Shown one piece after another: positions 784 to 16,050 of a stretch of 64,000 nucleotides of DNA (position 1 is its first letter; the number at the start of each line of letters is the position of its first letter). Below the pieces are notes generated by a model. It made no database searches. It saw nothing but the letters and a program-made list of their open reading frames with translations, and was not told the DNA's origin. The stretch comes from a virus (Duplodnaviria; Caudoviricetes): IMG/VR virus record IMGVR_UViG_3300049846_001081. One strand, given 5' to 3'. Made by a program: the position numbers and the translations under genes.

Positions 784-785
784 AA

Positions 786-977
786 ATGAAAACCTTTCAA
801 CAGTTTATTGAGCAAACTCCAGCGATGCAATCTAATGAGTATAATAAACAGGTTGCACGTCAATCTGCACGTTGGAAAGGTATGCAAATCCGTCAAGCAC
901 ATGGAGAAATGGAGCATGAAGCAGGTGCAGAACAATCTGCAAAGAAAGCAAGACTGAAAGCAATCATGTCTCGTTGA
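786..977 (+). CDS. Small basic protein with T4 capsid-targeting-like N-terminus
   Basis: MKTFQQFIEQ resembles the T4 internal-protein CTS MKTYQEFIAE; late-promoter-like AATAAATA at 759-766. Confidence 0.6.
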   Translation: MKTFQQFIEQTPAMQSNEYNKQVARQSARWKGMQIRQAHGEMEHEAGAEQSAKKARLKAIMSR

Positions 978-1015
978 ATTAAAGTTACTCACCTTCAAAG
1001 TGTTCTAGTAATGTA
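977..1015 (+). repeat. 39-bp element copy 1
   Basis: aattaaagttactcaccttcaaagtgttctagtaatgta. Confidence 0.95.
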
Positions 1016-1030
1016 AGCAACAATCCTATT

Positions 1031-1168
1031 ATGGACTCTTTTGACGACATTCAAATTGAAGATTTCTCCTCTTTTGATTTCGTTGAGGAGATGAATGAAG
1101 GTCTCTTTGATGAGAAAGATGATGACAAATCTTTTCAAGCATTTCTTAACTCTAACTGGGATTTCTGA
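1031..1168 (+). CDS. 45-aa very acidic protein (below ORF-track cutoff)
   Basis: Hand-translated MDSFDDIQIEDFSSFDFVEEMNEGLFDEKDDDKSFQAFLNSNWDF; starts 15 nt after repeat copy 1. Confidence 0.65.
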   Translation: MDSFDDIQIEDFSSFDFVEEMNEGLFDEKDDDKSFQAFLNSNWDF

Positions 1169-1184
1169 CAGTTTCTAAACTGTC
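1167..1184. promoter_or_regulatory. Perfect inverted repeat GACAGTTT-ct-AAACTGTC
   Basis: Read directly; followed by CAC and lies upstream of ORF 1229; related to 4830-4851. Confidence 0.6.
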
Positions 1185-1228
1185 CACTAAATCACCCACA
1201 CGGTTCTTTTATCCTTTATCATACTCAA

Positions 1229-1429
1229 ATGACTGAACAAATCCCTAACGTGCTTTCTCATATCAACGAACTGAAAGAAGCATGGCGCAAACAAGATTTT
1301 GTATTCACTAAACAACAACAAGAAGAATATGATTTACTTCTTGCCACTCGTCGTGAGCGTGTGAAGCAATTTTATGCTGAAGGACGTGTCTTTAAGGGTT
1401 CCTATAAAGCAAAGGAAGTTGAAATCTAA
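1229..1429 (+). CDS. Hypothetical protein
   Basis: 66-aa ORF in co-directional array. Confidence 0.7.
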   Translation: MTEQIPNVLSHINELKEAWRKQDFVFTKQQQEEYDLLLATRRERVKQFYAEGRVFKGSYKAKEVEI

Positions 1430-1455
1430 ATACTAAAAAGAGTGTTTAGATAACA

Positions 1456-2133
1456 ATGCGTACATTTCAGGAGTTTATGTCTCTTTGTGAAGCATCTGAT
1501 GCTGATACTGCCAGTCAACTTGGATGGGGTGGTGGTGCATCTATCACCCGCACAGGTGCTGGCGGTAGAATAGGGAAAGAACGCAAAAAGACTGCTCCTG
1601 AAGTTAGAAGAACCAAAGCAGTTGGTGGTGGTAAAACAGAACCTGTAGGACCATATAAAACACGCAAAGATGTTGGGCAACCACGTGGTTCTTCTGCACC
1701 AGCACCAGGAAGAGGTAAAGGTGCAACTGAACTAAAACCTGGCACTGCTGGAACTCAAGGTAGTGCCGCAATGTCTGCAAAAGAAAGACAACGTAAAGCA
1801 TACCTTGAGCGTAAAGCAAGAGAAGGTGGTAAAGCACAACCAAAAACTGCATCTCAAGCAATCTCTCAAGCAAAACCAACAGCAGAAAAACCAGCATCAA
1901 AACCACGCAGAAAGTGGGAACATGAAGGTGGTGGTGGTATGACCCGACAAGAAAGAGATAAAGCAAGGAATAAAGAGAAAACTGCAACAGCACAAAAGAC
2001 AAAGAAGTCTGCCACTGAGATTCTTGCACAAATGCGTAGAGAATACGAAGCAAATGGTGGAAAGTGGAGCAATGCTGTTGCTGTTCGTATGAGAGCAAAA
2101 GCAAAAGCGGTAGCACAAGCATCAGGAAGTTGA
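1456..2133 (+). CDS. K/R/A/G-rich basic protein with CTS-like N-terminus (candidate internal head protein)
   Basis: Starts MRTFQEFMSLCE; low-complexity basic body; TCTAAATA late-promoter-like site at 1425-1432. Confidence 0.65.
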   Translation: MRTFQEFMSLCEASDADTASQLGWGGGASITRTGAGGRIGKERKKTAPEVRRTKAVGGGKTEPVGPYKTRKDVGQPRGSSAPAPGRGKGATELKPGTAGTQGSAAMSAKERQRKAYLERKAREGGKAQPKTASQAISQAKPTAEKPASKPRRKWEHEGGGGMTRQERDKARNKEKTATAQKTKKSATEILAQMRREYEANGGKWSNAVAVRMRAKAKAVAQASGS

Positions 2134-2137
2134 GATC

Positions 2138-2176
2138 AATTAAAGTTACTCACCTCCAAAGTGTCCTAGTAGTATG
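2138..2176 (+). repeat. 39-bp element copy 2 (ends in ATG of ORF 2174)
   Basis: aattaaagttactcacctccaaagtgtcctagtagtatg. Confidence 0.95.
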
Positions 2177-2395
2177 ACTGATGCCTTCGCTATGGACCGA
2201 ATTGAAATCCAACGCAAACTCTATGATGCTCGCAATGAGTATCTAAAGGCAAAGAAGTCTATGGAGTTTTGGAAACGCGAAATCTCTTTCCTGAAAGAGT
2301 GTGAAGACAACCTCAAGAAAGGTCGCACTGGAGATTGGTTGTTCCGTGAAATGTTTGGCGATACTCCTATTGCTGAAGAAGTTTATGGTGGTTGA
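2174..2395 (+). CDS. Hypothetical protein
   Basis: 73-aa ORF starting at the repeat ATG. Confidence 0.7.
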   Translation: MTDAFAMDRIEIQRKLYDARNEYLKAKKSMEFWKREISFLKECEDNLKKGRTGDWLFREMFGDTPIAEEVYGG

Positions 2396-2485
2396 TTAAC
2401 TGCCACCAGCACCCCTCCACAATCGCCAGGAAGGGTGCTATAATAGTCTTTAGATACCAAACCACCCGAAACTCTGTAATTCGTA

Positions 2486-3727
2486 ATGTTCTCTGATCTG
2501 ATTAAACTTCGCCCACATCAAGAACGCGGTGTTGTTGCTATGCAACAGCATGATAAAGGTCAGGTGATTGTTCCCACTGGTGGTGGCAAGACTCTCAAGA
2601 TGATCTACGATGCTCTGCGCGAGTTACAGTCTGAAACTCCTCAGACCATTGTTGTTGTTGCTCCTCGCATCTTGCTTGCTGAGCAACTCTCTAGCGAGTT
2701 CCTTGAGTTCATCACTAACGCTAAAGTTTTCCACGTTCACAGTGGCGAAACTCATCACGAATCTTCTACTCGCCCTCGTGAAATCCGTAACTGGGTTGAT
2801 GCCAACGCTGACAATCATAAACTGATTGTAACCACCTACAACTCTCTGTCGCGTCTTCAAGTGGCAGAGATTGATGTGGATACGATCTACTTTGATGAGG
2901 CACATAACTCTGTTCAGCGTCACTTTTTCCCTGCAACTGAGTATTTCTCTGCTAACGCACGACGTTCGTATTTTTTCACGGCAACCCCGAAACATTCCCT
3001 CGCTGTTGGCAAACCTGGGATGAATGATACTGCGGTTTATGGTCAGGTAATCTGCAAAGTTCCTGCTCCTGAACTTGTTGAAGGCGGATATATTGTGCCT
3101 CCTAAAGTTATCGTCAAGCAACTGCAGATGGTGCAGGGCAAGCAAACCAACTTTGACCGAGACTCTGAGAATCTGCTAGAAACCATTGATGACAACAAGG
3201 TTGGCAAGATTTTGGTTTGTGCTAAGGCAACGAAGCAGATTGTGTCTTTGGTGACTGAAACTGATTTCTGTTTCCAGTTGGAGTGCCGTGGTTACTCTTG
3301 GATGTATATCACTGCTAAGACTGGTGCTGTCATTGATGGCAAGAAAGTGAACCGAGAAGTATTCTTTGACACGCTATCTGCCTGGGGTAAGGATAACGAT
3401 AAGAAGTTCGTAGTTCTTCACCACTCCATCCTTGCTGAAGGTATCAACGTGTCTGGTCTGGAAGCAGTGCTGTTTCTTCGCAATATGGACTTCATTGGTA
3501 TCAGTCAGACGATTGGACGTTGCATCCGTCTGCATCACGATGATGCTAAAGGTTTGCGTGATGGGCGTATCCAACCTGGCAACCTGGAGCAGTATAGCAA
3601 ATCGTTCGGTCTTGTGTGTATCCCAGTGTACTCCAAGGTTGGTATTGCTACCGCTCGCAGTGTGCAGTCGGTTGTTGATACGATCTTTGAGAAGGGAGAA
3701 CCTGCCATCTCGGTGGTGAGGCGCTGA
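2486..3727 (+). CDS. Superfamily II (DEAH) helicase, Res-III-like
   Basis: Motifs PTGGGKT (Walker A), DEAH, TATP, HSILAEGINV, QTIGRCIR; extended -10 TGCTATAAT at 2436-2444. Confidence 0.9.
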   Translation: MFSDLIKLRPHQERGVVAMQQHDKGQVIVPTGGGKTLKMIYDALRELQSETPQTIVVVAPRILLAEQLSSEFLEFITNAKVFHVHSGETHHESSTRPREIRNWVDANADNHKLIVTTYNSLSRLQVAEIDVDTIYFDEAHNSVQRHFFPATEYFSANARRSYFFTATPKHSLAVGKPGMNDTAVYGQVICKVPAPELVEGGYIVPPKVIVKQLQMVQGKQTNFDRDSENLLETIDDNKVGKILVCAKATKQIVSLVTETDFCFQLECRGYSWMYITAKTGAVIDGKKVNREVFFDTLSAWGKDNDKKFVVLHHSILAEGINVSGLEAVLFLRNMDFIGISQTIGRCIRLHHDDAKGLRDGRIQPGNLEQYSKSFGLVCIPVYSKVGIATARSVQSVVDTIFEKGEPAISVVRR

Positions 3728-3777
3728 GTCTCATAGTAGACTCAAGTATTCATCAGGGGTGAAACCCTGATTTTTTT
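3725..3777 (+). terminator. Double hairpin: TGAGTCT/AGACTCA stem, then Rho-independent terminator
   Basis: 3725-3744 stem-loop; 3752-3771 ATCAGGG-gtgaaa-CCCTGAT followed by a T run. Confidence 0.75.
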
Positions 3778-3845
3778 GTAATTCTACCTGGAGGGTGTCA
3801 TAGGTCATCCACCGCAACAAAATTAACGATTTATTGGAAAGTGTA

Positions 3846-4022
3846 ATGAAAGAAGGATTTATTGTTGGCAAAGGTAATTACTCTGCGATTCCTTATGGTA
3901 ATCAACTGATGGTAATTCACAACGGTCAGCAACTCAAAGTGTGTAGGACTGAAGCATCTGCTAGGAAGTTCATTGATGACCATAAAAAGGGTAAACCATT
4001 GGGCAAACTTCCATTGAATTAA
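3846..4022 (+). CDS. Hypothetical protein
   Basis: MKEGFIVGKGNYSAIPYG..; stop TAA lies inside repeat copy 3. Confidence 0.7.
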   Translation: MKEGFIVGKGNYSAIPYGNQLMVIHNGQQLKVCRTEASARKFIDDHKKGKPLGKLPLN

Positions 4023-4055
4023 AGTTACTCACCTCCAAAGTGTCCTAGTAGTGTA
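4017..4055 (+). repeat. 39-bp element copy 3
   Basis: aattaaagttactcacctccaaagtgtcctagtagtgta. Confidence 0.95.
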
Positions 4056-4070
4056 AGACGCATCTAATCT

Positions 4071-4316
4071 ATGCCTCGCACTCGCAAGCAAACCGCTAAT
4101 GTTGTTGCTGAAGTGAAAGTTCCTGAGGTTCTCATCACTCGCCAGCAATATATTCAAGACATTAAGGTTCGTTGGCAAATCCATCAATACGAAGTGAACA
4201 AACTTCGTGAAGATGTGAGCAAAGTTACTCAAACTGTTGCTCCCTATGTGAAAAACGCACTCGATTATGTTGTTACTCAGTTTCAACAAGTCCGTGCTAA
4301 GTATGCCACTAATTGA
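4071..4316 (+). CDS. Hypothetical protein (helical)
   Basis: 81-aa ORF starting 15 nt after the repeat. Confidence 0.7.
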   Translation: MPRTRKQTANVVAEVKVPEVLITRQQYIQDIKVRWQIHQYEVNKLREDVSKVTQTVAPYVKNALDYVVTQFQQVRAKYATN

Positions 4317-4327
4317 AGTGGAACTCT

Positions 4328-4349
4328 GGACTCTCTGAGTCCTTTTTTT
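4328..4349 (+). terminator. Rho-independent terminator
   Basis: GGACTC-tct-GAGTCC followed by T7. Confidence 0.75.
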
Positions 4350-4794
4350 ATTTGTATGAGTATCCTTCTTTTATGAACTGTTCTCTATAGTAATCTGCTA
4401 TTTTCTTAAACGATGATAAATCTGTTGATGCTCTAACATTATTAACACATTTTAGACACCAACAAAGATTATCTGGATGGTTTGCTTCATCAATCGTCAT
4501 TCCCATTATGAAACAAACTGCGAGTGGTATTTTGTGGTCTAATGATCTTTTTCTTGGGTCATTTGGATTGGGAAACTCTACTTCAGTATCCACAAATCTA
4601 ATCCCAGTATGATAGCAATAATCGTATTCTTTCAGAACTGGTTTAGCATCTTTTCTTAAATGTTTTACTTTTCCTATTCTTGTTCTGCTGTGTCTTTTTC
4701 TCACTTGATCTCCAGCAACTCTGATGTATTCTGTTAGTTCTATTTGAAACTTTGGTTGTTTGTATTCTATGCTGTTTCTTTCTATTAAGTTCAT
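4348..4794 (-). CDS. HNH endonuclease-like protein (putative free-standing homing endonuclease)
   Basis: SLDHKIP..ANHPDNLCWCLKCVNNVR fits the HNH beta-beta-alpha motif; only convincing minus-strand gene in the window; own late promoter. Confidence 0.7.
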   Translation of the reverse strand: MNLIERNSIEYKQPKFQIELTEYIRVAGDQVRKRHSRTRIGKVKHLRKDAKPVLKEYDYCYHTGIRFVDTEVEFPNPNDPRKRSLDHKIPLAVCFIMGMTIDEANHPDNLCWCLKCVNNVRASTDLSSFKKIADYYREQFIKEGYSYK

Positions 4795-4818
4795 AAGATA
4801 GATGGTTTCCGTCTACTT

Positions 4819-4826
4819 TATTTATA
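4819..4826 (-). promoter_or_regulatory. T4-type late promoter TATAAATA (minus strand)
   Basis: Plus strand reads TATTTATA, 24 nt upstream of the minus-strand ATG at 4794. Confidence 0.7.
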
Positions 4827-4829
4827 AGA

Positions 4830-4886
4830 GGACAGTTGTAAAAGTGTCCACTATCTCTTGACTTTTGCCCCTTGGAATCCTATTAT
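4830..4886 (+). promoter_or_regulatory. GGACA-N10-TGTCC dyad followed by sigma70-like promoter
   Basis: ggacagttgtaaaagtgtccac at 4830-4851; TTGACT 4858-4863, 17-bp spacer, TATTAT 4881-4886. Confidence 0.65.
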
Positions 4887-4892
4887 TTGATT

Positions 4893-5816
4893 ATGAACAA
4901 AACAACCACTAAAAACCTACACCTTGAGCACCCTGAAGATATGGTGCTGACTGGAAATCTTGAGGTTCTTGATTGGTTCTCTGAACCTGATAGTTTTATC
5001 TCTACAAAACTTGATGGAAGTCCTGCTATTGTTTGGGGCACAAATCCTCAGAATGGCAAGTTTTTTGTCTGCACCAAAGCAGCATTTAACAAGAAAAAGA
5101 TTCGTCTTTGCTATAACGAAGATGACATTTTCACTCATTTTGGTGGGCAACCGCGTGTAACGCAGATTCTCATTTTCTGCCTGGATTTCCTGCCTCGCAC
5201 TCAACAAGTGTTGCAAGGTGATTGGATTGGTTTCGGTGGTGGGTTGGATACATTTACTCCCAACACAATTACCTACAAGTTTCCTGCACCAGTTCGTCAG
5301 GATATTATCATCGCTCCGCACACAATCTACAGCGGTTCGGATGACATTCGTGAGATGACTGCTTCCCCTCTGAATAGCAAACTCATCAGCACTAAACATT
5401 GTCTTTTCGTGCAACCTGAAGTGGAACTGAATCCTTATCGCGAAGATTTGGAGGATGTGTGTAAGTTTGCCAAGCAAATGTCAACTCTGTGTGAGTTTGT
5501 GAGTGATCGTAAAGCATCACAAATCAAAAAAGAGATTAACGCTTGCATCCGTGAGCAAAAGGTCATTGATGAGGATGAAATTGCAGAAAAATGTGATTGT
5601 GACAAGAACCTGATCCGTTTGTGGAAGTTGGTAGCATCTATCAAGGATGATTTGTTCTTGTTCATTCACGAAAAGGATGATATTGATTGCTACATCAATG
5701 GCGAACAATCTTTCCACGAAGGTTATTGCATTTCTAACAAATACGGCATTTACAAAGTTGTTGATAGGGAAACTTTCTCACACGCTAACTTCACAATCGC
5801 TAAGAATTGGGGTTAA
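4893..5816 (+). CDS. Phage protein with RNA-ligase/nucleotidyltransferase-like motifs
   Basis: STKLDGS (KxDG), VLQGDWIG, HEGYCI and YKVVDRETFS resemble ligase motifs I, III, IV and V; ATG at 4893 follows the promoter. Confidence 0.55.
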   Translation: MNKTTTKNLHLEHPEDMVLTGNLEVLDWFSEPDSFISTKLDGSPAIVWGTNPQNGKFFVCTKAAFNKKKIRLCYNEDDIFTHFGGQPRVTQILIFCLDFLPRTQQVLQGDWIGFGGGLDTFTPNTITYKFPAPVRQDIIIAPHTIYSGSDDIREMTASPLNSKLISTKHCLFVQPEVELNPYREDLEDVCKFAKQMSTLCEFVSDRKASQIKKEINACIREQKVIDEDEIAEKCDCDKNLIRLWKLVASIKDDLFLFIHEKDDIDCYINGEQSFHEGYCISNKYGIYKVVDRETFSHANFTIAKNWG

Positions 5817-5853
5817 TTGAAGTTACTCACCTTCAAAGTGTTCTAGTAGTATG
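5815..5853 (+). repeat. 39-bp element copy 4 (ends in ATG of ORF 5851)
   Basis: aattgaagttactcaccttcaaagtgttctagtagtatg. Confidence 0.95.
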
Positions 5854-6285
5854 ACAACCACAACTTTCGCTGAATACGCTTCCCAGCAAGAGGCACGTCA
5901 GAACATCGCTAACGCTGTTCTAGCACATACTTACGCATTGTGTGAAGCATTGCGTCAGAATTACATTGATTATAGTATCAAATCTCATCAACTTCGCACG
6001 TCTGATGTAGAGTATCATGATGCCTGTATTGCTAAACTCAAGCAAGGCATTTGTGATTATGATTTCTATCCTGAGACTGGTAGAAAGTATCACAAAATTA
6101 TTATGAACGCTGCAGGATCTCGCTCTGTCCATGCTTTTGTGGATAAAAAGACTGGTGAAGTGTATAAGTCTGCCAGTTGGAAGTCTCCTGCCAAAGGTGT
6201 TCGTTATGACCTGCGATTGATTGAGCAACGTGAATGGTTGTTGCAACATGCTGACTGGGCAGGTGGTTATTTGTACGCAAGGTGA
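5851..6285 (+). CDS. Phage hypothetical protein
   Basis: 144 aa containing GRKYHKI..SVHAFVDKKTGEVYKSASWKSPAKGVRY, a motif I recall from many phage early proteins. Confidence 0.75.
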   Translation: MTTTTFAEYASQQEARQNIANAVLAHTYALCEALRQNYIDYSIKSHQLRTSDVEYHDACIAKLKQGICDYDFYPETGRKYHKIIMNAAGSRSVHAFVDKKTGEVYKSASWKSPAKGVRYDLRLIEQREWLLQHADWAGGYLYAR

Positions 6286-6485
6286 TGATTATGAATCAAG
6301 AGCAACTTATCCGTTCAATCAGTCAACAACTTGAAAATCTAATGTCCTTAGATGAAGAGTTGTCTGAAAAGTATGATGCGTATTGTTTCTACCCTGACAC
6401 TGATTATGAACCGATTGTAGAACGATTCACTCCCGAACTTCTCAAAGAACTTGAGAAACTTGTTTATCAACTTGAGACCGAATGA
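6285..6485 (+). CDS. Small acidic hypothetical protein
   Basis: Coupled via TGATG; E/D-rich. Confidence 0.65.
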   Translation: MIMNQEQLIRSISQQLENLMSLDEELSEKYDAYCFYPDTDYEPIVERFTPELLKELEKLVYQLETE

Positions 6486-6736
6486 CTTACTCTAACCTCT
6501 CAAAGATCCGTCCTAAACTTCGTACAACTGGGCGTGTGTCTGGTAACTTCGGACGCAACAAAGTATCAGCAGGATCATCACTCAATGACATTGGTGGTGA
6601 TGGTAACATAGGGGCAACACAAGATGAATACCTGAACCGATTGTATTATGCTTTTGATAACACTACCGAACCTAAACTTCGCCAGTTCATTTATTCGGAA
6701 ATCCGCAAAATCCACATTCAAAGAGGAACGTGGTAA
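6482..6736 (+). CDS. Hypothetical protein
   Basis: 84-aa ORF, ATGA-coupled to the previous gene. Confidence 0.7.
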   Translation: MTYSNLSKIRPKLRTTGRVSGNFGRNKVSAGSSLNDIGGDGNIGATQDEYLNRLYYAFDNTTEPKLRQFIYSEIRKIHIQRGTW

Positions 6737-6741
6737 CAAAC

Positions 6742-6780
6742 AATTAAAGTTACTCACCTCCAAAGTGTTCTAGTGGTATA
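6742..6780 (+). repeat. 39-bp element copy 5
   Basis: aattaaagttactcacctccaaagtgttctagtggtata. Confidence 0.95.
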
Positions 6781-6798
6781 ACCACTGAAATCCACCAA

Positions 6799-7338
6799 AT
6801 GTTTAATTCTATTTTTGAAGATGGATCTCTCCAAGATTACATCAATCAAAATGCACAAGATCCTTGGATTGGTACACCTTTCCAAGGTTATGTGTTTATG
6901 TCTCCCAAGCAAAAAGGTGAGTTTGGTGAGCGTTTCGTATCAAAGTTCTTTGAGAGTGTGTTGCTTTGTGATGTAAAACGTGCAAAAACTTCTACTGCTG
7001 GGCACGATCGTGTCATTGATGGTATTCTAACTGAAATTAAGTTTTCTCTTGCTACCCGTGACAAAAAGGGTGGCACAAAGAAAGATCAATTCATCATCAA
7101 TCATGTCTCAAAGGATAAGGATTGGGAGCGTCTTGTGTTCTTTGGTATCAATCAAGATGAGAAAGATTGTCGTTTGTTTTGGTTTAGCAAAGAGGATTTT
7201 CTGAGTCATCTTGAGTCTGATGATTGTCTGTTCGCATCACAGCAAGGTGGCAAATCTATCGGCAATGATGATTACATTTGCACAAAAGTTGATCGTCTGG
7301 TAGAATGTTCGTTTGTGAAGAGCATAACCGAATGGTGA
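6799..7338 (+). CDS. Putative PD-(D/E)xK restriction endonuclease
   Basis: KGEFGE helix and HDRVIDGILTEIKFS (D..E-x-K); overlaps the methyltransferase start. Confidence 0.6.
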   Translation: MFNSIFEDGSLQDYINQNAQDPWIGTPFQGYVFMSPKQKGEFGERFVSKFFESVLLCDVKRAKTSTAGHDRVIDGILTEIKFSLATRDKKGGTKKDQFIINHVSKDKDWERLVFFGINQDEKDCRLFWFSKEDFLSHLESDDCLFASQQGGKSIGNDDYICTKVDRLVECSFVKSITEW

Positions 7339-8060
7339 ATCTATTTCACGGTGATTGTTTAGACATTCTACCAACACTTGCAGATAATTCTGTTGATCTG
7401 GTGTTAGTAGATCTGCCATACGGAACAACAGCATGTAAATGGGATTCTATCATTCCTCTAGACAAATTGTGGGAGCAGTATAACAGAATCTGCAAGGAAG
7501 ATGGTGCGATGGTATTCACCGCAGCACAACCATTCACAACTATACTTGCATCATCAAATCTTGAGAACTTTCGTTATGAGTGGATTTGGGAAAAACCACA
7601 GGGAACTAATCCTATGAACGCGAAAGTGATGCCTCTCAAGTCACACGAAAACATTCTGGTTTTTTATCGCAAGAAACCCACATATAATCCTCAAATGTGG
7701 TATTCAACTCCTTACAGTGGTTTCTCATCAGATACCAGCAAGATTGGGGAGGTTTATGGTAAAGCACAATCAAAGCATCGCGATAATCCTGATGGATCAA
7801 GATATCCAAAGACAGTGTTACGATTCAAGCAAGAAAAGGGATTGCATCCTACACAGAAACCTGTAGATTTAATGGAGTATTTGATCAGAACATATAGCAA
7901 TGAAGGTGATACTGTTCTTGATAATACCATGGGATCAGGTACAACTGGTGTTGCATGTGTGAACACTAATAGAAACTTTGTTGGTATTGAAAGTGATGAT
8001 CAATACTACAAGATTGCCAGTGATCGTATCAACAATCCTCTGCTATCTGCTCTGAATTAA
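7332..8060 (+). CDS. N6-adenine/N4-cytosine DNA methyltransferase (beta class)
   Basis: Motif IV DLPY, HPTQKP and motif I DNTMGSGTT in beta order; ATG 7332 overlaps the REase stop; stop is inside repeat copy 6. Confidence 0.9.
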   Translation: MVNLFHGDCLDILPTLADNSVDLVLVDLPYGTTACKWDSIIPLDKLWEQYNRICKEDGAMVFTAAQPFTTILASSNLENFRYEWIWEKPQGTNPMNAKVMPLKSHENILVFYRKKPTYNPQMWYSTPYSGFSSDTSKIGEVYGKAQSKHRDNPDGSRYPKTVLRFKQEKGLHPTQKPVDLMEYLIRTYSNEGDTVLDNTMGSGTTGVACVNTNRNFVGIESDDQYYKIASDRINNPLLSALN

Positions 8061-8093
8061 AGTTACTCACCTCCAAAGTGTCCTAGTAGTATG
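8055..8093 (+). repeat. 39-bp element copy 6 (ends in ATG of ORF 8091)
   Basis: aattaaagttactcacctccaaagtgtcctagtagtatg. Confidence 0.95.
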
Positions 8094-8312
8094 AACGACA
8101 CTATCATGGATCAAGTCTACCACTATCACACCAACTGGAAAGAAGGTAAAGTGAATCAAATGTGGATTCAGCAAGTAGAAGACAAGTTCATTGCTATTGC
8201 ATACAATCCCGAAAAGAATGTGTCAATGCCAATGTCCAAACCCCGCACTTCCTACGATGAAACTCTACAATGGGTTCGCAAGTGGTGTGGAACTTTCTGT
8301 CCTCTTTACTGA
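8091..8312 (+). CDS. Hypothetical protein
   Basis: 73-aa ORF from the repeat ATG. Confidence 0.7.
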   Translation: MNDTIMDQVYHYHTNWKEGKVNQMWIQQVEDKFIAIAYNPEKNVSMPMSKPRTSYDETLQWVRKWCGTFCPLY

Positions 8313-8319
8313 TTGATTG

Positions 8320-8484
8320 ATGATGAAAAACTACAAAATTACGGTTGAAACATTTGATGGATTGCGTACTATTTGGTATGAAAAATCCAAAGCAAAAAAA
8401 GCAACCGATATTATCTGCAATCGTGTTTATCAACAACTTTGTGGATTGAATGTGAAGCGAATCTCTGTTGATCTTTCCGTATGA
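8320..8484 (+). CDS. 54-aa hypothetical protein
   Basis: Hand-translated MMKNYKITVETFDGLRTIWYEKSKAKKATDIICNRVYQQLCGLNVKRISVDLSV. Confidence 0.6.
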   Translation: MMKNYKITVETFDGLRTIWYEKSKAKKATDIICNRVYQQLCGLNVKRISVDLSV

Positions 8485-8618
8485 TTACACTTGCTGTTGG
8501 TGGAGTTATTCTCACCATATTCTGCACCATGTTTTATCTTGAGGACCGCGATGGTGGTGGTCTTTATGATCCCGATCCGTCTGCATCTTACCGTCACAAA
8601 CAATCAAAAAACAAATGA
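8481..8618 (+). CDS. 45-aa protein with N-terminal hydrophobic segment
   Basis: MITLAVGGVILTIFCTMFYLEDRDGGG..; ATGA coupling at both ends. Confidence 0.55.
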   Translation: MITLAVGGVILTIFCTMFYLEDRDGGGLYDPDPSASYRHKQSKNK

Positions 8619-8755
8619 AATACGAAGTCAAACTGTACGTTGGTGGCAAAGTCTTCACTGAAGAAGTATATGCTAACGATCAAAAATCTGCAAGAGAAAC
8701 AGCAGAAGCACGAAATCCTACCGCAAAAGTTATTGGTGTCAATGCAAAGTTCTAG
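8615..8755 (+). CDS. 46-aa hypothetical protein
   Basis: MKYEVKLYVGGKVFTEEVYANDQKSARETAEARNPTAKVIGVNAKF; stop 1 nt before repeat copy 7. Confidence 0.65.
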   Translation: MKYEVKLYVGGKVFTEEVYANDQKSARETAEARNPTAKVIGVNAKF

Positions 8756-8756
8756 G

Positions 8757-8795
8757 AATTAAAATTACTCACCTTGAAAGTGTTCTAGTAGTATG
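8757..8795 (+). repeat. 39-bp element copy 7 (ends in ATG of ORF 8793)
   Basis: aattaaaattactcaccttgaaagtgttctagtagtatg. Confidence 0.95.
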
Positions 8796-8963
8796 AGCAA
8801 GACTTTCACCGTTCGCTTCACCTCTGAAGCACTCAATTCTCCCGAATACATTGGACCTTTTTACTCTGAAGATGATGCCAATGATTATGCTGATGATCGC
8901 AACAGTTCTTTAGCATTATCTGGTATTCCTTCCTCTGTTGCTTGTTATTCTGTTGTTGACTGA
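8793..8963 (+). CDS. 56-aa hypothetical protein
   Basis: MSKTFTVRFTSEALNSPEYIGPFYSEDDANDYADDRNSSLALSGIPSSVACYSVVD. Confidence 0.65.
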   Translation: MSKTFTVRFTSEALNSPEYIGPFYSEDDANDYADDRNSSLALSGIPSSVACYSVVD

Positions 8964-8965
8964 TT

Positions 8966-9136
8966 ATGATACAAACTACTCTCACTTTTGAGGAGATTGA
9001 TGCACTTCTCAAGTTCATCGAGTTTCACACTGATTCATTTGTTGACGAAGAATCTGTAGAAGAATTGAATGGAATTGTGGGGTGTGATGTTGATGCACTC
9101 TACACCAAACTTTCTGAAATGCAGGATGAAGTCTGA
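8966..9136 (+). CDS. 56-aa acidic protein
   Basis: MIQTTLTFEEIDALLKFIEFHTDSFVDEESVEELNGIVGCDVDALYTKLSEMQDEV. Confidence 0.65.
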   Translation: MIQTTLTFEEIDALLKFIEFHTDSFVDEESVEELNGIVGCDVDALYTKLSEMQDEV

Positions 9137-9348
9137 TGCAATTCCAAGTTACTGAAATTGAGTTTGATTTCACTGATGATCTTGATGATGAAGCACTAGA
9201 TGTTGAAACTCAAGATGAGATTTATGATGAGGTTCTAGGTACAATCTGGGAAGCAGATGATGAAGATGATCTCATTGAAGAAATCACATGTGCAACAGGT
9301 TGGTGCATCAAATCCATTGATTATCGTCACATTCTTAACACTTTCTGA
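9136..9348 (+). CDS. 70-aa very acidic protein
   Basis: MQFQVTEIEFDFTDDLDDEALDVETQDEIYDEVLG..; TGATG-coupled. Confidence 0.75.
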   Translation: MQFQVTEIEFDFTDDLDDEALDVETQDEIYDEVLGTIWEADDEDDLIEEITCATGWCIKSIDYRHILNTF

Positions 9349-9359
9349 AACGAACTAAA

Positions 9360-9572
9360 ATGACACTTACTTCTGACCAACTTCGCAAACTGATTCAACT
9401 TTATGCTGAGCGAGTTGTTGATAGTATGGATGTGCGCGATTTGTGTGCATTTGCCATTGACACAATTTGTGATAACATGACGGACTATAATGAGTCTGAA
9501 TTGATGGAAGAATTGTCGCACTATTATGAGGACGACGAACTCAACGAATTGGTTGAATCTGTCAAGAATTAA
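9360..9572 (+). CDS. 70-aa acidic protein
   Basis: C-terminus DYNESELMEELSHYYEDDELNELVESVKN; stop inside repeat copy 8. Confidence 0.7.
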   Translation: MTLTSDQLRKLIQLYAERVVDSMDVRDLCAFAIDTICDNMTDYNESELMEELSHYYEDDELNELVESVKN

Positions 9573-9605
9573 AGTTACTCACCTCCAAAGTGTCCTAGTA
9601 GTATG
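9567..9605 (+). repeat. 39-bp element copy 8 (ends in ATG of ORF 9603)
   Basis: aattaaagttactcacctccaaagtgtcctagtagtatg. Confidence 0.95.
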
Positions 9606-9770
9606 AGCATCACACTTGACCTTGAAATGGCATCTGAACTGATCGGATTTATGAATGACTTTCCTGTCGCAGATTTGAATGATTGTGTAGACTTCATCTG
9701 TGACAAGTTTGATGTATCTGCAACCGATGAGTTGATTGATGCTGTTGCTGACTTTTTCTTTGCTAACTGA
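9603..9770 (+). CDS. 55-aa acidic protein
   Basis: MSITLDLEMASELIGFMNDFPVADLNDCVDFICDKFDVSATDELIDAVADFFFAN. Confidence 0.65.
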   Translation: MSITLDLEMASELIGFMNDFPVADLNDCVDFICDKFDVSATDELIDAVADFFFAN

Positions 9771-9776
9771 TAACAA

Positions 9777-9956
9777 ATGACACACTACAATCCTTATGTT
9801 CAAAACCTGATTGAGATGGGTTATGATGAGAAAGACTGCCAAACTGTAGCAGTTGCTGGTATGAAAAAGCAATTTCCACTTAACATTCACGGTCGCATCT
9901 TTGAGACTGAAAGTGAATACAAGGAAGCACTTGCTGACTTTATCAATGGTCTGTAG
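9777..9956 (+). CDS. 59-aa hypothetical protein
   Basis: MTHYNPYVQNLIEMGYDEKDCQTVAVAG..; TAG abuts repeat copy 9. Confidence 0.65.
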   Translation: MTHYNPYVQNLIEMGYDEKDCQTVAVAGMKKQFPLNIHGRIFETESEYKEALADFINGL

Positions 9957-9995
9957 AATTAAAGTTACTCACCTTGAAAGTGTTCTAGTAGTATG
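9957..9995 (+). repeat. 39-bp element copy 9 (ends in ATG of ORF 9993)
   Basis: aattaaagttactcaccttgaaagtgttctagtagtatg. Confidence 0.95.
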
Positions 9996-10229
9996 AATCA
10001 AACCACTTACACCTCTCCTGATACAAACAAGACTTATACGGTTATTGAATCACAATCTGAGCGTGGTGCATGGGATAAGGATGGAAACTATGCACCAGTT
10101 GTTGTGACTCAGTACAGCATTTATGATGATAACAAGATGGTGCAATTTGCTTTTGATGTAGAAGGAATTGCACGTTCTGTAAAGCATTATGAATTGCCTG
10201 GTCCTGATTTAGGTTCACGCTTTGACTAA
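9993..10229 (+). CDS. Hypothetical protein
   Basis: 78-aa ORF from the repeat ATG. Confidence 0.7.
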   Translation: MNQTTYTSPDTNKTYTVIESQSERGAWDKDGNYAPVVVTQYSIYDDNKMVQFAFDVEGIARSVKHYELPGPDLGSRFD

Positions 10230-10364
10230 AAGTTTAACATTCAAGAGTCCAAGTAAAGTGAAAACCATCGCATTGATTTTTATTGTTGCGATGATATTCT
10301 CACCACAAGTGAGATACACAACCGCACAAACATTACACACCGTTGCTGATCTAATTTCCCCACA

Positions 10365-10613
10365 ATGAGAAGCGTAAAAGTTCATTCAAGCAAGAGTGTT
10401 AATTTCACATCAAAGGCATCATTTTGGTGTGAGATGATTAATCTTTATAGGCGAATCTATCCGTCACATTCTTTTGCTCAAATCGCAAAACATTTCAATC
10501 TGTCAGAGACAAATACTCGTCGGTATTATTACGGGATTCATCACTACAACTCTTTTCCCGTTTATTATACACAGATGAGGCAGGGTGCATGTGTCTCAAT
10601 TCCACACAATTAA
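10365..10613 (+). CDS. Small helix-turn-helix DNA-binding protein
   Basis: SFAQIAKHFNLSETNTRRYY fits an HTH pattern; stop inside repeat copy 10. Confidence 0.55.
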   Translation: MRSVKVHSSKSVNFTSKASFWCEMINLYRRIYPSHSFAQIAKHFNLSETNTRRYYYGIHHYNSFPVYYTQMRQGACVSIPHN

Positions 10614-10646
10614 AGTTACTCACCTCCAAAGTGTTCTAGTAGTATA
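10608..10646 (+). repeat. 39-bp element copy 10
   Basis: aattaaagttactcacctccaaagtgttctagtagtata. Confidence 0.95.
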
Positions 10647-10667
10647 AGACCTCTGAAATCTCCAACC

Positions 10668-10979
10668 ATGCGAGTCATTGAAAAGCAAATGAATCAAGCA
10701 ATCAGCACTGAAACTGATTGGAAGAAAGATAATACTCAAGTTATCAACATTGAAGGTGTAAGTTTCGTCTATCTGTATAACAATCTGATTGCAATGGTAG
10801 GTGACACTTGGTTAGAATTGTTTGATGGTGGATGGAAGACTAATACCACCAAGTCTCGCCTCAATGCTATTCTCCAAGAGCATGGAAATGGAGAGTACAT
10901 TTTCCAGAAAAACTTCAACTGGTTTGTATCAACAATCAACGGTGATGTTCCTTTCAACAATGGCATCAAACTCGACTGA
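10668..10979 (+). CDS. Phage hypothetical protein
   Basis: 103 aa with DGGWKTNTTKSRLNAIL motif. Confidence 0.75.
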   Translation: MRVIEKQMNQAISTETDWKKDNTQVINIEGVSFVYLYNNLIAMVGDTWLELFDGGWKTNTTKSRLNAILQEHGNGEYIFQKNFNWFVSTINGDVPFNNGIKLD

Positions 10980-10992
10980 CTGATTGAATAAA

Positions 10993-11169
10993 ATGACTGA
11001 ACTTGAACTTCAATGTGTCCATCTTGCCTATCAACTTGCAGAGGAAATCAATGGTGATGTGAGTTGCGTACCTGATGAAGATATGGAGGTTATTCTTAAC
11101 AAACTGAATCGTAATAACGTTCAAGAAGTTGCACAAGAAATCGCTGATCTTGCACACTGGTTTAACTAA
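10993..11169 (+). CDS. Small acidic hypothetical protein
   Basis: MTELELQCVHLAYQLAEEINGDV.. Confidence 0.6.
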   Translation: MTELELQCVHLAYQLAEEINGDVSCVPDEDMEVILNKLNRNNVQEVAQEIADLAHWFN

Positions 11170-11339
11170 TGACTGATACCGACAAAGTATTTGCTCTAAC
11201 TGAACTTCTGGGTGATGTAATTCACACTCTTGAAATGAAACAGTATGACATTGAAGATGCTACTCTGTCTTATGAATGTGTGACTGATGCTGATAAGTTT
11301 CGCCAAAAGATGATCGACATTCTTTATCCAAACAAATGA
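11169..11339 (+). CDS. 56-aa hypothetical protein
   Basis: MTDTDKVFALTELLGDVIHTLEMKQYDIEDATLSYECVTDADKFRQKMIDILYPNK; TAATG-coupled. Confidence 0.6.
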   Translation: MTDTDKVFALTELLGDVIHTLEMKQYDIEDATLSYECVTDADKFRQKMIDILYPNK

Positions 11340-11500
11340 CAAAATCAATCAATCAAGAACTCAAAACCCAAGCAGTTGTAGAAGCACTAGAGTTCTACAT
11401 TCAGAATCTCAAAGACACCAACTGTACGCAATCTTCAATCGACTTTTATACTCAAGTATTGAAAGAAGTTGATTCTGAACTCCAACATTCTGTACTCTAA
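11336..11500 (+). CDS. 54-aa hypothetical protein
   Basis: MTKSINQELKTQAVVEALEFYIQNLK..; ATGA-coupled. Confidence 0.6.
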   Translation: MTKSINQELKTQAVVEALEFYIQNLKDTNCTQSSIDFYTQVLKEVDSELQHSVL

Positions 11501-11504
11501 ACTA

Positions 11505-11678
11505 ATGCAAAAGACATTCAAAAAGTTCATCTGGAAAGACTCAAGATCCAATCAAGTTAAAGTCATTCTAGCAAGGTCAGAATACCAAGCAAGGAAACAA
11601 AACTTTGGTAATCTTGCTGGTTATCTTTACTCTCACTCTGTTGCGCTTGCGCTTAACCCTTCGGGCACTCTAAACTGA
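11505..11678 (+). CDS. Hypothetical protein
   Basis: MQKTFKKFIWKDSRSNQVKVILARSEYQAR.. Confidence 0.55.
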   Translation: MQKTFKKFIWKDSRSNQVKVILARSEYQARKQNFGNLAGYLYSHSVALALNPSGTLN

Positions 11679-11812
11679 TGTTTCTCATTCGTTATTTCAC
11701 TCCTTATCAACAACAATGGAGGACACAATCATTCTCTACACTTGATGAGGCACAACGCATGATTGAGTTCTATCGTTCTTGTGGAAGTCCTGCTGAACTT
11801 ATCAACAACTGA
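11678..11812 (+). CDS. 44-aa hypothetical protein
   Basis: MFLIRYFTPYQQQWRTQSFSTLDEAQRMIEFYRSCGSPAELINN; TGATG-coupled. Confidence 0.6.
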   Translation: MFLIRYFTPYQQQWRTQSFSTLDEAQRMIEFYRSCGSPAELINN

Positions 11813-11819
11813 AACTCTC

Positions 11820-11951
11820 ATGATTGAAACACTGATCGCATCAATTATCGTAGGACAAGTTATCTCTGGTCCAAACACTTTACAGACTGAATACCTAACT
11901 GAAAGGGATGAAGTTATCACTATAGTGGAGACGATTCAAGAGGTTCCGTAA
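11820..11951 (+). CDS. 43-aa hypothetical protein
   Basis: MIETLIASIIVGQVISGPNTLQTEYL.. Confidence 0.55.
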   Translation: MIETLIASIIVGQVISGPNTLQTEYLTERDEVITIVETIQEVP

Positions 11952-11959
11952 TAACATAG

Positions 11960-11984
11960 AGGCACCACATCAGGTGCCTTTTTT
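11960..11984 (+). terminator. Rho-independent terminator
   Basis: GGCACC-acatca-GGTGCC followed by T6. Confidence 0.75.
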
Positions 11985-12314
11985 AATGCCTATTTGTACG
12001 ATTTATGCTAAAAAAACAATAAAAAACGATTAAAAATGTATTAAAAAATATATGTATGTTGTTTTAATCGTCTGATCATTATTGTTATCAATGTGTGATA
12101 ATGATATGAATTCGTATCATTTATGTGCTTGTAATCTCTCTGTGTGCCTATAAACCTCTCCAGATATGTGTGCTGATACCTTATAAATGTGCTGAGGTCT
12201 TGTGATCTAAGCGAGCATAACATAACGACCGCACTTTGTCAACTTCCAGGGTCACAAAATCCCCACAATCCCCCCATCAAAATCCACACCCCGCTCATAA
12301 ATACGCCCAGGGAC

Positions 12315-12343
12315 TTGACACTTATTCCCAGGCATCTTACAAT
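12315..12343 (+). promoter_or_regulatory. Sigma70-like promoter
   Basis: TTGACA, 17-bp spacer, TACAAT; GGAG RBS before ORF 12372. Confidence 0.75.
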
Positions 12344-12371
12344 ACTCTCATAACACCAAAGGAGCGTACTT

Positions 12372-12545
12372 ATGTCAGTTGCTTATAGTCAAGCGCAGAA
12401 GCAGCGTTATAGGATCACTCTGGATCTATCAGTGTTCGGTGACTTTGACCCACATCAGATTGATTGGGAGAAGTTATTCAAGTTGGAACCTGCAGAAAAG
12501 TGTGATGCTTACGTTGAGGATCTAAGTACACCTGACCGTTGGTGA
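12372..12545 (+). CDS. 57-aa hypothetical protein
   Basis: MSVAYSQAQKQRYRITLDLSVFGDFDPHQIDWEKLFKLEPAEKCDAYVEDLSTPDRW. Confidence 0.7.
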   Translation: MSVAYSQAQKQRYRITLDLSVFGDFDPHQIDWEKLFKLEPAEKCDAYVEDLSTPDRW

Positions 12546-12554
12546 TTTAGCAGT

Positions 12555-12593
12555 CATTAAAGTTGCTCACCTTTAAAGTGTCCTAGTAGTATG
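12555..12593 (+). repeat. 39-bp element copy 11 (most diverged; ends in ATG of ORF 12591)
   Basis: cattaaagttgctcacctttaaagtgtcctagtagtatg. Confidence 0.9.
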
Positions 12594-12887
12594 AGGGGCA
12601 GACAAACGACCCCCCACACAGACACTAACTCTTCACAAATGACTGTTACTTATCAGACCAACATTCAGGACCAAACCTATAACGGTTGGACGAATTATGA
12701 GACCTGGAATGTTGCACTGTGGATCAGCAATGATGAGGGTCTTTATGACATTGCACGTCGTTGTGATGATTATCAAGACTTCGTAGATGCAGTGGAAGGA
12801 CTTATCACTAAGACGCCTGACGGAGTATCATTCACCAGCGATATGTTGAACTTCCACGAACTCAACGACATGATTGAAGATCTCTGA
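12591..12887 (+). CDS. Phage hypothetical protein
   Basis: YNGWTNYETWNVALWI motif; true start could be an internal Met (MTVTY..). Confidence 0.75.
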   Translation: MRGRQTTPHTDTNSSQMTVTYQTNIQDQTYNGWTNYETWNVALWISNDEGLYDIARRCDDYQDFVDAVEGLITKTPDGVSFTSDMLNFHELNDMIEDL

Positions 12888-13747: not shown

Positions 13748-13770
13748 TGATCTGAAGGTTAATTTAACTT

Positions 13771-15648: not shown

Positions 15649-16050
15649 ATGCCTTTAGAAAGGGTTAGTCAAGGATTTAAAGATATCAGTATGTCATTTC
15701 AGATTAACCCTCTGAATAGTGACTTGATTGCCCTTAAAAATGAAACTGCAATTTCTCGTTCAATTCGTAATATTGTTTTTACAGTTCCGGGTGAGAAATT
15801 TTTTAATGAAAACTTCGGATCAAATATCTCTAGATCTATTTTTGAAAATGTTGATGACATTTCGGCATCAGTAATTGTTGATGAAATTAGACAATCCATT
15901 CAAAATTATGAACCAAGAGTTGAATTGATTGATGTTCAGGCATATCCTGACTACGATAACAACTCATTTGATGTTATTATCACTTACAATATTATTGGTG
16001 CAGACGTACCTGCACAACAACTACAGTTTGTATTGCAACCAACAAGGTAA
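15649..16050 (+). CDS. gp25: Baseplate wedge subunit gp25
   Basis: GEKFFNENFGS..IQNYEPRVEL gp25-family motifs; position before gp6. Confidence 0.92.
   Translation: MPLERVSQGFKDISMSFQINPLNSDLIALKNETAISRSIRNIVFTVPGEKFFNENFGSNISRSIFENVDDISASVIVDEIRQSIQNYEPRVELIDVQAYPDYDNNSFDVIITYNIIGADVPAQQLQFVLQPTR

Follow-up and report, generated by a model that had tools for sequence, protein, structure and literature searches.

A repeated element in the small-gene block of a T4-like cyanomyovirus is most likely an early-gene promoter with a built-in start codon

T4 middle promoters combine a MotA box at about −30 with a sigma-70 −10 element, an arrangement that works by sigma appropriation. For T4-like cyanophages, Doron et al. 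2016 reportedly found a novel element that drives the early genes of Syn9 and P-TIM40 and is conserved among these phages. That element reportedly shares several properties with the repeat described here: it is repeated, does not follow the sigma-70 consensus, lies before small early genes upstream of the baseplate genes, and, as a class, is kept throughout cyanomyoviruses and metagenomes. The genes motA and asiA are missing from cyanophages (PMC5780444). In T4-type phages, promoter-early stem-loops (PeSLs) are multicopy early promoters found in the hyperplastic region (PMC2839356, PMC4122927).

We analyzed a window of 64,000 nt (IMG/VR record IMGVR_UViG_3300049846_001081), which belongs to a T4-like cyanomyovirus (Kyanoviridae) of freshwater or estuarine metagenomes. 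A first-pass annotation had described 11 same-orientation copies of a 39-bp repeat in this window and had suggested that they delimit exchangeable gene cassettes. We recovered exactly 11 matches, all on the + strand (≤3 mismatches, Table 1), whereas 100 dinucleotide-preserving shuffles yielded none. Realignment of the copies confirmed that copies 2, 6, and 8 are the same over all 39 bp and that position 40 is A in 11/11 copies, and the spacings of 390 to 1947 bp agree with the intervals of 0.39 to 1.95 kb given previously. A looser scan of the whole window (≤6 mismatches over 31 nt, both strands) returned the same 11 copies only, leaving the structural block without a copy, as had been stated. 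The repeat itself stands, but its length does not, as the conserved unit exceeds 39 bp: across 314 unique instances, conservation extends to C42-A43, and a G-poor C/A tract continues to approximately position 53.

Each copy constitutes an entire intergenic gap. The upstream gene has its stop codon within the left end or shortly before it (positions −13 to +6, inside the repeat or ≤13 nt from it), and the last three bases (37-39) are the ATG of the next gene in 7/11 copies. In 61% of copies, the start codon is part of the element at 37-39; otherwise, it is located at 51-61. The A/T-rich left end is followed by a 10-bp box at positions 8-17, placed where a −35 element would sit. In the window, this box is GTTACTCACC, an imperfect palindrome (GTTACTCAC); in a sister type, the palindrome is perfect (GTTAGTAAC). 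On the 3′ side of the box are a conserved AAAGTGTCC, a −10-like TAGTRT (positions 33-38), A40/C42-A43, and a short G-poor C/A leader. T33, A34, and T38 each reach at least 96% conservation, which corresponds to the TAnnnT −10 pattern, and the purine-rich A40/C42-A43 region comes next.

The element has a two-part build. The −10-like half, AAAGYGT-N5-TAGTRT, is common to three genomes, including the cultured phages S-SM2 and SynMITS9220M01, and to >100 uncultured contigs. The box at the −35 position varies between lineages, with at least 10 types that include GTTACTCACC and GGGGGGTCG. Within a contig, the box is usually uniform (14/14, 12/12, and 9/9 copies at best), and one box type is present at ≥75% of copies in 66/98 contigs. 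A scan for the sigma-70 consensus (≥9/12 matches) flagged 0/11 copies, because the repeats have no −35-like hexamer. A Shine-Dalgarno sequence is also absent from the element. The earlier observation that the repeat has no obvious stem-loop, attC, or dif dyad held up: the repeat and its flanks form no RNA or DNA hairpin and fold more weakly than shuffles (z +0.9 to +1.6), the sole dyad in the repeat is a 3-bp CAC/GTG, and none of the 11 copies examined is adjoined by a terminator-like hairpin.

Table 1. Coordinates of the repeat copies and other features of the window
Feature	Coordinates	Strand	Description
Early or hyperplastic small-gene array	977..12593	+	~40 ORFs, all but one on + strand
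Repeat copy 1	977..1015	+	Non-ATG type, GTA at 37-39; upstream ORF stop 975-977; next ORF from 1031
Repeat copy 2	2138..2176	+	ATG type; ATG at 2174 opens 73-aa ORF; second in-frame ATG at motif position 55
Repeat copy 3	4017..4055	+	Non-ATG type; next ORF from 4071
Repeat copy 4	5815..5853	+	ATG type; ATG at 5851 starts DUF7717 protein
Repeat copy 5	6742..6780	+	Non-ATG type; next ORF from 6799, then N6/N4 DNA methylase
Repeat copy 6	8055..8093	+	ATG type; ATG at 8091; second in-frame ATG at position 52
Repeat copy 7	8757..8795	+	ATG type; ATG at 8793 is sole in-frame ATG of conserved 56-aa protein
Repeat copy 8	9567..9605	+	ATG type; ATG at 9603
Repeat copy 9	9957..9995	+	ATG type; ATG at 9993, no further in-frame ATG nearby
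Repeat copy 10	10608..10646	+	Non-ATG type; upstream of Kyano_Gp96/gp90-family gene (10668-10979)
Repeat copy 11	12555..12593	+	ATG type, most divergent copy; ATG at 12591 opens DUF7249 protein
Second element type, first copy	1167..1231	+	Perfect dyad GACAGTTTCTAAACTGTC 1167-1184, then TATCAT 1217-1222
Second element type, second copy	4831..4895	+	Dyad 4831-4848, then TTGACT-17-TATTAT 4858-4886
148-aa ORF	4348..4794	−	Weak endonuclease VII match
gp25-like baseplate wedge gene	15649..16050	+	Start of late structural block; 0 repeat copies

The array occupies the small-gene block immediately upstream of the baseplate genes gp25/gp6/gp7. Among the gene labels assigned to this block previously, the helicase was supported (phrog_16). 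The putative R-M pair was supported in part: the N6/N4 DNA methylase (PF01555) is present, but the neighboring protein, its supposed partner, is without known function. We found no support for the ligase-like label, which had been given to a 314-aa DUF6267 protein, and the sole basis for the HTH label is a sub-threshold sigma-70 region-4 match (E 0.2). An 82-aa ORF (10365-10613) with a sub-threshold sigma-70 region-4 match (E 0.2) was considered as the factor that might read the box and was rejected; it cannot be a general factor, because it has no homologue in 60 related contigs.

The block also contains two copies of a second element type. In the first, 6 nt separate the end of TATCAT from an ATG at 1229, a geometry that predicts a leaderless transcript; in the second, 6 nt likewise separate the end of TATTAT from the ATG of the DUF6267 gene at 4893. 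Relatives have a copy of the repeat at the site of this second dyad element, and the dyad family of GACAGTTTCTAAACTGTC is also present in the early block of P-HM2. The 148-aa reverse-strand ORF is flanked by a terminator-like hairpin (4328-4342) and has TATAAATA on the − strand at 4819-4826, approximately 25 nt upstream of its ATG; its locus is g9-motif-g10 in relatives. As a class marker, the T4-type late promoter TATAAATA was rejected, with 4 matches only and no enrichment.

The embedded ATG at 37-39 is clearly used. The frame that begins there is open in 189/193 copies and is shared by 104/107 downstream ATGs, and the conserved g20 family has no other start than this ATG. In the S-SM2 and SynMITS9220M01 orthologues of the DUF7717 protein, the start is the second ATG, at position 52-55. 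Because the embedded ATG overlaps the proposed −10 hexamer, a transcript beginning 6-8 nt downstream would lack it. Its use despite this overlap requires either read-through from upstream copies or an unconventional transcript start at or before position 37. Regarding read-through, terminators between modules are absent. The phage is present in only one metatranscriptome, in the form of assembled contigs whose ends are uninformative on the transcription start, and one of these contigs spans copy 11 from 53 nt upstream. A g11 homologue that does not have the element carries an ordinary GGAGG ribosome-binding site in its stead, which marks the element as an exchangeable expression signal.

We compared the block with those of related phages. 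It is syntenic with the P-HM2 early block and with repeat-bearing blocks of Syn9, S-SM2, and SynMITS9220M01. P-HM2 genes PHM2_056-074, just upstream of gp25/gp6/gp7, are experimentally early (PMC5082946 S2 Table). The element is directly upstream of early family T4-GC 66 in S-SM2 and SynMITS9220M01, and an element is upstream of the gp90/Kyano_Gp96 family in 4/4 genomes (the window, SynMITS9220M01, S-SM2, and Syn9). Two relatives have one upstream of g10 and g11, and neither of these has one at module-internal genes. Overall, element positions are kept at orthologous genes over approximately 45-60% protein identity. In genome-wide counts taken from relatives, the complete SynMITS9220M01 genome carries the homologous element 12-13 times, at 36.3-50.0 kb only and on the + strand only. 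Copies on both strands were observed at 0/75 loci (74 uncultured contigs and SynMITS9220M01).

Syn9 and P-HM2 have their own repeated elements at the syntenic place, which in Syn9 is upstream of the gp90 family too. These elements consist of a −10-like hexamer with a TGGCACA/GACAGTT-type dyad further upstream; they differ in sequence from the repeat in the window, where the 10-bp box abuts AAAGTGTCC and TAGTRT and the start codon can be fused. The exact motif core is absent from Syn9, whose own repeat has only a core of GTGT-N2-4-(C)TATA in common with that of the window, and the shared 3′ half is absent from P-HM2. By position, the window repeat may be akin to the element reported for Syn9.

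The likeness to repeated early promoters of T4-type hyperplastic regions, proposed in the first-pass annotation, is evident. Both PeSLs and the window repeats are concentrated in the hyperplastic region, where they flank small genes without known function, and in both cases relatives differ by insertion, deletion, and replacement of bounded units with no dedicated recombinase. Unlike PeSLs, the window repeats have a −10-like TAGTRT but no sigma-70 consensus and no −35-like hexamer, and no terminator stem-loop is adjacent to them. Many breakpoints between relatives fall at the element, but without a significant excess over gene junctions generally. As in T4 middle promoters, a host-type −10 is paired with a phage-specific box that replaces the −35; in contrast to those promoters, the class in the window would be early rather than middle, and its factor is only proposed here.

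We consider it probable that the repeat is a multicopy early-class promoter and expression cassette of this T4-like cyanomyovirus, with all eleven repeats most likely being versions of a single early-gene promoter that carries its own start codon and is placed before small early gene groups. Promoter activity is suggested by the TAnnnT −10 pattern, the shared 3′ half, and the lineage-specific box at the −35 position, by the conservation of element positions at orthologous genes, by the presence of separate repeated elements at the same place in Syn9 and P-HM2, and by the lack of an RNA or DNA hairpin in the element. The early class is suggested by all 11 copies pointing the same way as the genes and occurring only in the small-gene block before the baseplate genes, and by the synteny with the experimentally early P-HM2 genes. 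Host RNA polymerase would use the −10-like half, and an additional factor, supplied by the phage or the host and differing between phage lineages, would read the box. In this way, approximately a dozen small host-takeover or accessory gene groups would be switched on together straight after infection. Given the 40-45 bp of near-identity among them, the copies may also be incidental substrates for phage homologous recombination, as a by-product rather than a purpose.

A more specific version of this model is tentative, and we regard it as possible rather than likely. It holds that the elements form a two-part promoter family in which a shared −10 half is joined to an exchangeable 10-bp specificity box, usually kept uniform by each lineage across its 9-14 copies, with a co-evolving phage-supplied factor and with fused start codons giving leaderless or near-leaderless early mRNAs. 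If this is true, the factor would be delivered in the virion or made first, and the lineages would hold natural sets of orthogonal promoter-factor pairs.

The best-surviving alternative, although an unlikely one, is a cassette-recombination system in which the repeat is primarily a crossover site for ready-to-express modules, similar to PeSLs or integrons. A comparison of 60 non-redundant related contigs shows insertion, deletion, and replacement of motif-bounded modules and, at times, their relocation: methylase gene homologues occupy approximately four backbone positions, mostly between two motif copies, and some contigs show a swap of the g20 and g25 modules. In 79 cases, a different gene follows a retained motif, and 15 distinct novel adjacencies pass through a motif. 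The stop and start codons in the repeat ends would keep crossovers inside the repeat functional, and polymorphisms at motif positions 19, 20, and 28 have no association with the gene on either side, a pattern consistent with conversion between copies. Many joints in contigs from other samples are at motif edges; we disregarded these, as a 39-bp repeat can cause false joins, and hence chimeras, in 31-mer assemblies.

The proposed gain, loss, and reordering of modules is thus seen as variation among relatives, but the repeat did not emerge as the crossover site when rearrangement breakpoints were compared, as the first-pass annotation had suggested doing. With comparators only 70-90% identical, adjacency was broken at 67% of motif junctions versus 56% of non-motif junctions, and the motif was present in 28/67 novel versus 51/165 conserved adjacencies (odds ratio 1.6, p=0.13, not significant). 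In 25 distinct rearrangements, the joint is without a motif. Orthologues keep their element positions across deep divergence, and the repeat has no stem-loop or dyad. A scan of three (near-)complete related genomes (SynMITS9220M01, S-SM2, and a 184-kb IMG/VR relative) for tyrosine and serine recombinases (PF00589, PF00239) found none. The array does resemble integron attC/attI arrays in being a one-directional series of short gene units split by a repeated element. Unlike integrons, however, it has no integrase match in these three genomes and no imperfect-palindrome attC structure, its repeat resembles a promoter and marks the 5′ end of every unit, and the units appear to have a promoter each instead of the single Pc of an integron. 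By the annotation's own rule for refuting the cassette idea, the results lean towards its fallback, that the repeat is only a multicopy promoter or operator. For gene shuffling, the repeated promoters offer modest help at most; they do not form a dedicated system.

It is very unlikely that the element is instead an intercistronic signal at the RNA level, such as a re-initiation/stand-by or processing site in a polycistronic early mRNA. The stop codon of the preceding gene and the start codon of the next, both built into the unit, with the embedded ATG in frame and in use, are compatible with such a signal, as are the unstructured RNA followed by a C/A-rich, G-poor tract without a Shine-Dalgarno sequence and the RNA contig that runs through copy 11. 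However, a translation signal would not usually have approximately 40 nt of near-invariant, unstructured primary sequence, the variable box is exactly at the −35 position beside a TAnnnT hexamer, and promoter-type elements (a dyad and a −10-like hexamer) are found at the syntenic place in Syn9 and P-HM2. A pure operator, which would only bind a repressor or another DNA-binding protein (e.g., for early shut-off) with transcription from elsewhere, is highly improbable: the palindromic character of the box and the high information content over approximately 40 bp would suit it, but no other promoter is available in most gaps, as the repeat is the whole intergenic region, and the −10-like hexamer belongs to the conserved unit. 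The promoter reading leaves room for an operator function and probably includes one.

Reading the repeat as an early promoter fused to translation signals turns an apparent phage integron into a compact early expression cassette, with stop codon, promoter, and start codon in approximately 40-55 bp, in a cyanophage lineage widespread in freshwater and marine settings. Its two-part build, in which the box at the −35 position differs by lineage, offers a handle on how T4-like cyanophages, which are without MotA, AsiA, and Alt-type functions, target host RNA polymerase to early genes. The element could serve as a portable promoter in cyanobacterial and cyanophage genetics. It probably also marks which of the small genes without known function are host-takeover or anti-defense genes.

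A pattern search of the window returned exactly 11 copies of the 39-bp repeat, all on the + strand and spaced 390 to 1947 bp apart; 100 shuffles gave 0 matches, and relaxing the match criteria across both strands of the full 64 kb added no copies to these 11. The count of same-orientation copies in the first-pass annotation, and its statement that the structural block contains none, are therefore confirmed, as are the mutual identity of copies 2, 6, and 8 and the A at position 40 in 11 of 11 copies. Baseplate proteins resembling gp25, gp6, and gp8 are encoded from 15.6 kb onward, and the same late region contains a 4008-aa gp7-like protein, the tail sheath, and other T4-type virion genes. The nearest published genomes are those of the Synechococcus phages S-SM2 and SynMITS9220M01 (Kyanoviridae; core genes at ~77% nucleotide identity), and the sequence is present in public runs, mostly freshwater and estuarine metagenomes. 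Given these virion genes, closest genomes, and metagenome sources, the window belongs to a T4-like cyanomyovirus, and the array is located in the block of small genes immediately before its baseplate module. The array has 38 to 45% G+C versus 30 to 35% for most of the structural block (one bin reaches 42%), a marked compositional step between 1-16000 and 16000-64000 inside one phage genome. The gp7-like protein carries a YHYH domain (PF14240), and a second giant ORF encodes a 2480-aa protein with DUF4815.

Coordinates of the repeat copies and other features in the window
Feature	Position	Strand	Remarks
Repeat copies 1 to 11 (starts)	977, 2138, 4017, 5815, 6742, 8055, 8757, 9567, 9957, 10608, 12555	+	pattern search
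Dyad GACAGTT-N4-AACTGTC	1167-1231		perfect dyad, then -10 hexamer; ATG 1229
Dyad GACAGTT-N4-AACTGTC	4831-4895		one mismatch in the dyad, then -10 hexamer; ATG 4893
Terminator-like hairpin	4328-4342		
148-aa ORF	4348-4794	-	weak endonuclease VII match, phrog_1035, E 2e-6
Late-promoter octamer	4819-4826	-	TATAAATA
82-aa ORF	10365-10613		
Giant ORF, gp7-like	17981-30007		
Giant ORF, DUF4815	31589-39031		

Each copy constitutes the entire intergenic region. The stop of the upstream ORF lies anywhere from 13 nt before the repeat to a TAA at positions 4 to 6, and an ATG at positions 37 to 39 opens the next ORF in 7 of the 11 copies; the remaining four read GTA or ATA there, and the next ORF begins 16 to 22 nt further on. 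A search of the window and related contigs, with positions 1 to 7 left unconstrained, yielded 314 unique instances. Positions 1 to 7 are 94 to 99% conserved (position 1 less so), conservation continues past the 39-mer (A40 90%, C42 64%, A43 78%), and a G-poor C/A tract extends to about position 53. Conservation is at least 96% at each of T33, A34, and T38, matching a TAnnnT -10 hexamer. The element contains no -35-like hexamer, and a sigma-70 consensus scan flags 0 of 11 copies. As the first-pass annotation had said, there is no obvious stem-loop: on both strands, folding of the repeat with its flanks is no stronger than that of shuffled controls (z +0.4 to +1.6), and none of the 11 copies has a terminator-like hairpin next to it.

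Homologous elements occur at the syntenic place in both close relatives, with at least 12 copies in S-SM2 and 12 in SynMITS9220M01, where the core is present 12 to 13 times genome-wide, only at 36.3 to 50.0 kb and only on the + strand. Among uncultured viral contigs, 74 stretches contain the window-type core; a contig carries at most 10 copies, and no contig has them on both strands. The 3' half in S-SM2 (AAAGYGT-N5-TAGTRT, followed by RA and often GCA) shares its register with that of the window, whereas the box at positions 8 to 17 is GGGGGGTCG in S-SM2 versus GTTACTCACC in the window. A scan of the viral collection for this common 3' half by itself returned at least 120 stretches. Among the matches listed, there are at least 10 well-populated box types, the type is mostly uniform per contig (14/14, 12/12, and 9/9 in the best cases), and one type accounts for at least 75% of copies in 66 of the 98 contigs with at least three. 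Because the 3' half is common to relatives while the box differs by lineage, the element has two parts, one a shared half that resembles a -10 and the other a lineage-specific box in the place of a -35. The window box is an imperfect palindrome, its sister type GTTAGTAAC is a perfect one, and GGGAC, found in several G-rich boxes, is complementary to the GTCCC conserved at positions 26 to 30. At two S-SM2 copies (7252-7302 and 17112-17162), GAGACCCGAC and GCGACCCGC just downstream of the element complement that phage's own G-rich box, making a hairpin that encloses the -10 region possible; no such complement was seen at the other S-SM2 copies.

RNA-seq clustering assigned the P-HM2 genes PHM2_056-074 to the early class (PMC5082946, S2 Table). 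The genome record places these small hypothetical genes 2.7 kb upstream of gp25/gp6/gp7, the same position that the window array occupies. For one of them, T4-GC 66, the S-SM2 and SynMITS9220M01 orthologues directly follow an element copy. P-HM2 and Syn9 have their own, different repeated element at the syntenic place, with a TGTGCCA/GACAGTT-type dyad, and the Syn9 copies end in a TATAAG hexamer. The Syn9 block holds orthologues of the window's helicase (gp75), DUF7717 (gp69), and methylase (gp62) genes; gp80 and gp90 are further orthologues of window genes. An element lies upstream of the gp90/Kyano_Gp96 family in all four genomes and upstream of g10, g11 (the DUF7717 gene), g6, and g25 in one or both close relatives; the module-internal genes g4, g5, g19, g22, g37, g42, and g43 have none in either SynMITS9220M01 or S-SM2. 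Element positions are thus conserved at orthologues. In Syn9 and P-TIM40, a novel element conserved across T4-like cyanophages reportedly drives the early genes. In one IMG/VR contig (L036), the DUF7717 homologue starts without a repeat and is translationally coupled to the upstream gene, with a canonical GGAGG ribosome-binding site, which shows that the same gene can exchange one kind of expression signal for the other.

The P-HM2 early block has repeats of the same family as the two dyads in the window. Downstream of each window dyad, a sigma-70-like -10 hexamer stops exactly 6 nt short of the ATG, a geometry that predicts leaderless mRNAs. A T4-type late-promoter octamer lies ~25 nt before the ATG of the reverse-strand 148-aa ORF, and a terminator-like hairpin lies beside the ORF. 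Relatives have g9-motif-g10 at this site (4328-4826), which suggests that the putative nuclease gene took the place of one repeat copy. The 82-aa ORF just upstream of copy 10 has a sub-threshold sigma-70 region-4 helix-turn-helix hit (E 0.2) and no homologue among 60 related contigs; it appears to encode a window-specific small putative DNA-binding protein.

ATG is present at positions 37 to 39 in 193 of the 314 instances, and its frame is open over the next 13 codons in 189 of these 193, versus 46 to 70% for other frames or non-ATG copies. Of 107 downstream ATGs at positions 44 to 66, 104 share its frame (55 in frame and 2 out after merging into downstream families); the same frames in non-ATG copies are spread 50/19/34. 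A second in-frame ATG follows at 52 to 61 in roughly half of the ATG copies, typically as ATG, twelve C/A-rich bases, ATG, and non-ATG copies have a start codon at 51 to 58. In the family of g20, the 56-aa protein after copy 7, the embedded ATG is the sole start in 13 of 14 contigs, other box types included, and the codons that follow (TFTVRF) are conserved with synonymous changes. The open frame, the in-frame downstream ATGs, and the g20 family show that the embedded ATG is used. This conflicts with a transcript starting 6 to 8 nt after TAGTRT. Either read-through transcription from upstream copies supplies the mRNA of the embedded-ATG genes (no terminators lie between modules), or initiation is unconventional. 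A leaderless design is plausible in this region because both dyad-type promoters put the -10 hexamer so close to the ATG.

The first-pass annotation proposed that the repeats act as integron-style or PeSL-like (promoter-early stem-loop) sites at which genes are gained, lost, and reordered. The array fails the integron features tested, and the recombinase that might be encoded elsewhere did not emerge: SynMITS9220M01, S-SM2, and a 184-kb uncultured relative have no Phage_integrase or Resolvase domains. In a comparison of the 48 ORFs of the window against 60 non-redundant related contigs, 115 of 171 observations at motif junctions (67%) showed a broken adjacency, versus 191 of 341 (56%) at the remaining junctions. 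A motif that follows a gene in the window recurs in the relative in 128 of 171 observations; at junctions that lack a motif in the window, the relative carries one in 16 of 341. For breakpoints at the elements, another defining feature of PeSLs, the signal is a non-significant excess: among tightly adjacent gene pairs in relatives, the motif is present in 28 of 67 novel adjacencies versus 51 of 165 conserved ones (odds ratio 1.6, p=0.13). In the gene-order strings, the backbone is conserved, the modules are variable and often bounded by motifs, and a few permutations occur. Of the distinct novel adjacencies, 25 lack the motif and 15 have it. Polymorphic positions 19, 20, and 28 of the motif track neither flank. 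Contigs from other samples have joints at motif edges; we left these out of the conclusion because the assemblies are built from 31-mers. The phage's own recombination may use the copies as incidental homology, but a privileged or dedicated role for them as recombination sites is improbable.

The analogy to PeSLs survives at the level of function, where the array resembles the repeated early promoters of T4-type hyperplastic regions, but not at the level of sequence, since the repeat lacks both the sigma-70 consensus and the adjacent stem-loop. By position and build, the array fits the early-promoter class of cyanomyoviruses, of which it would be a lineage-specific sequence member.
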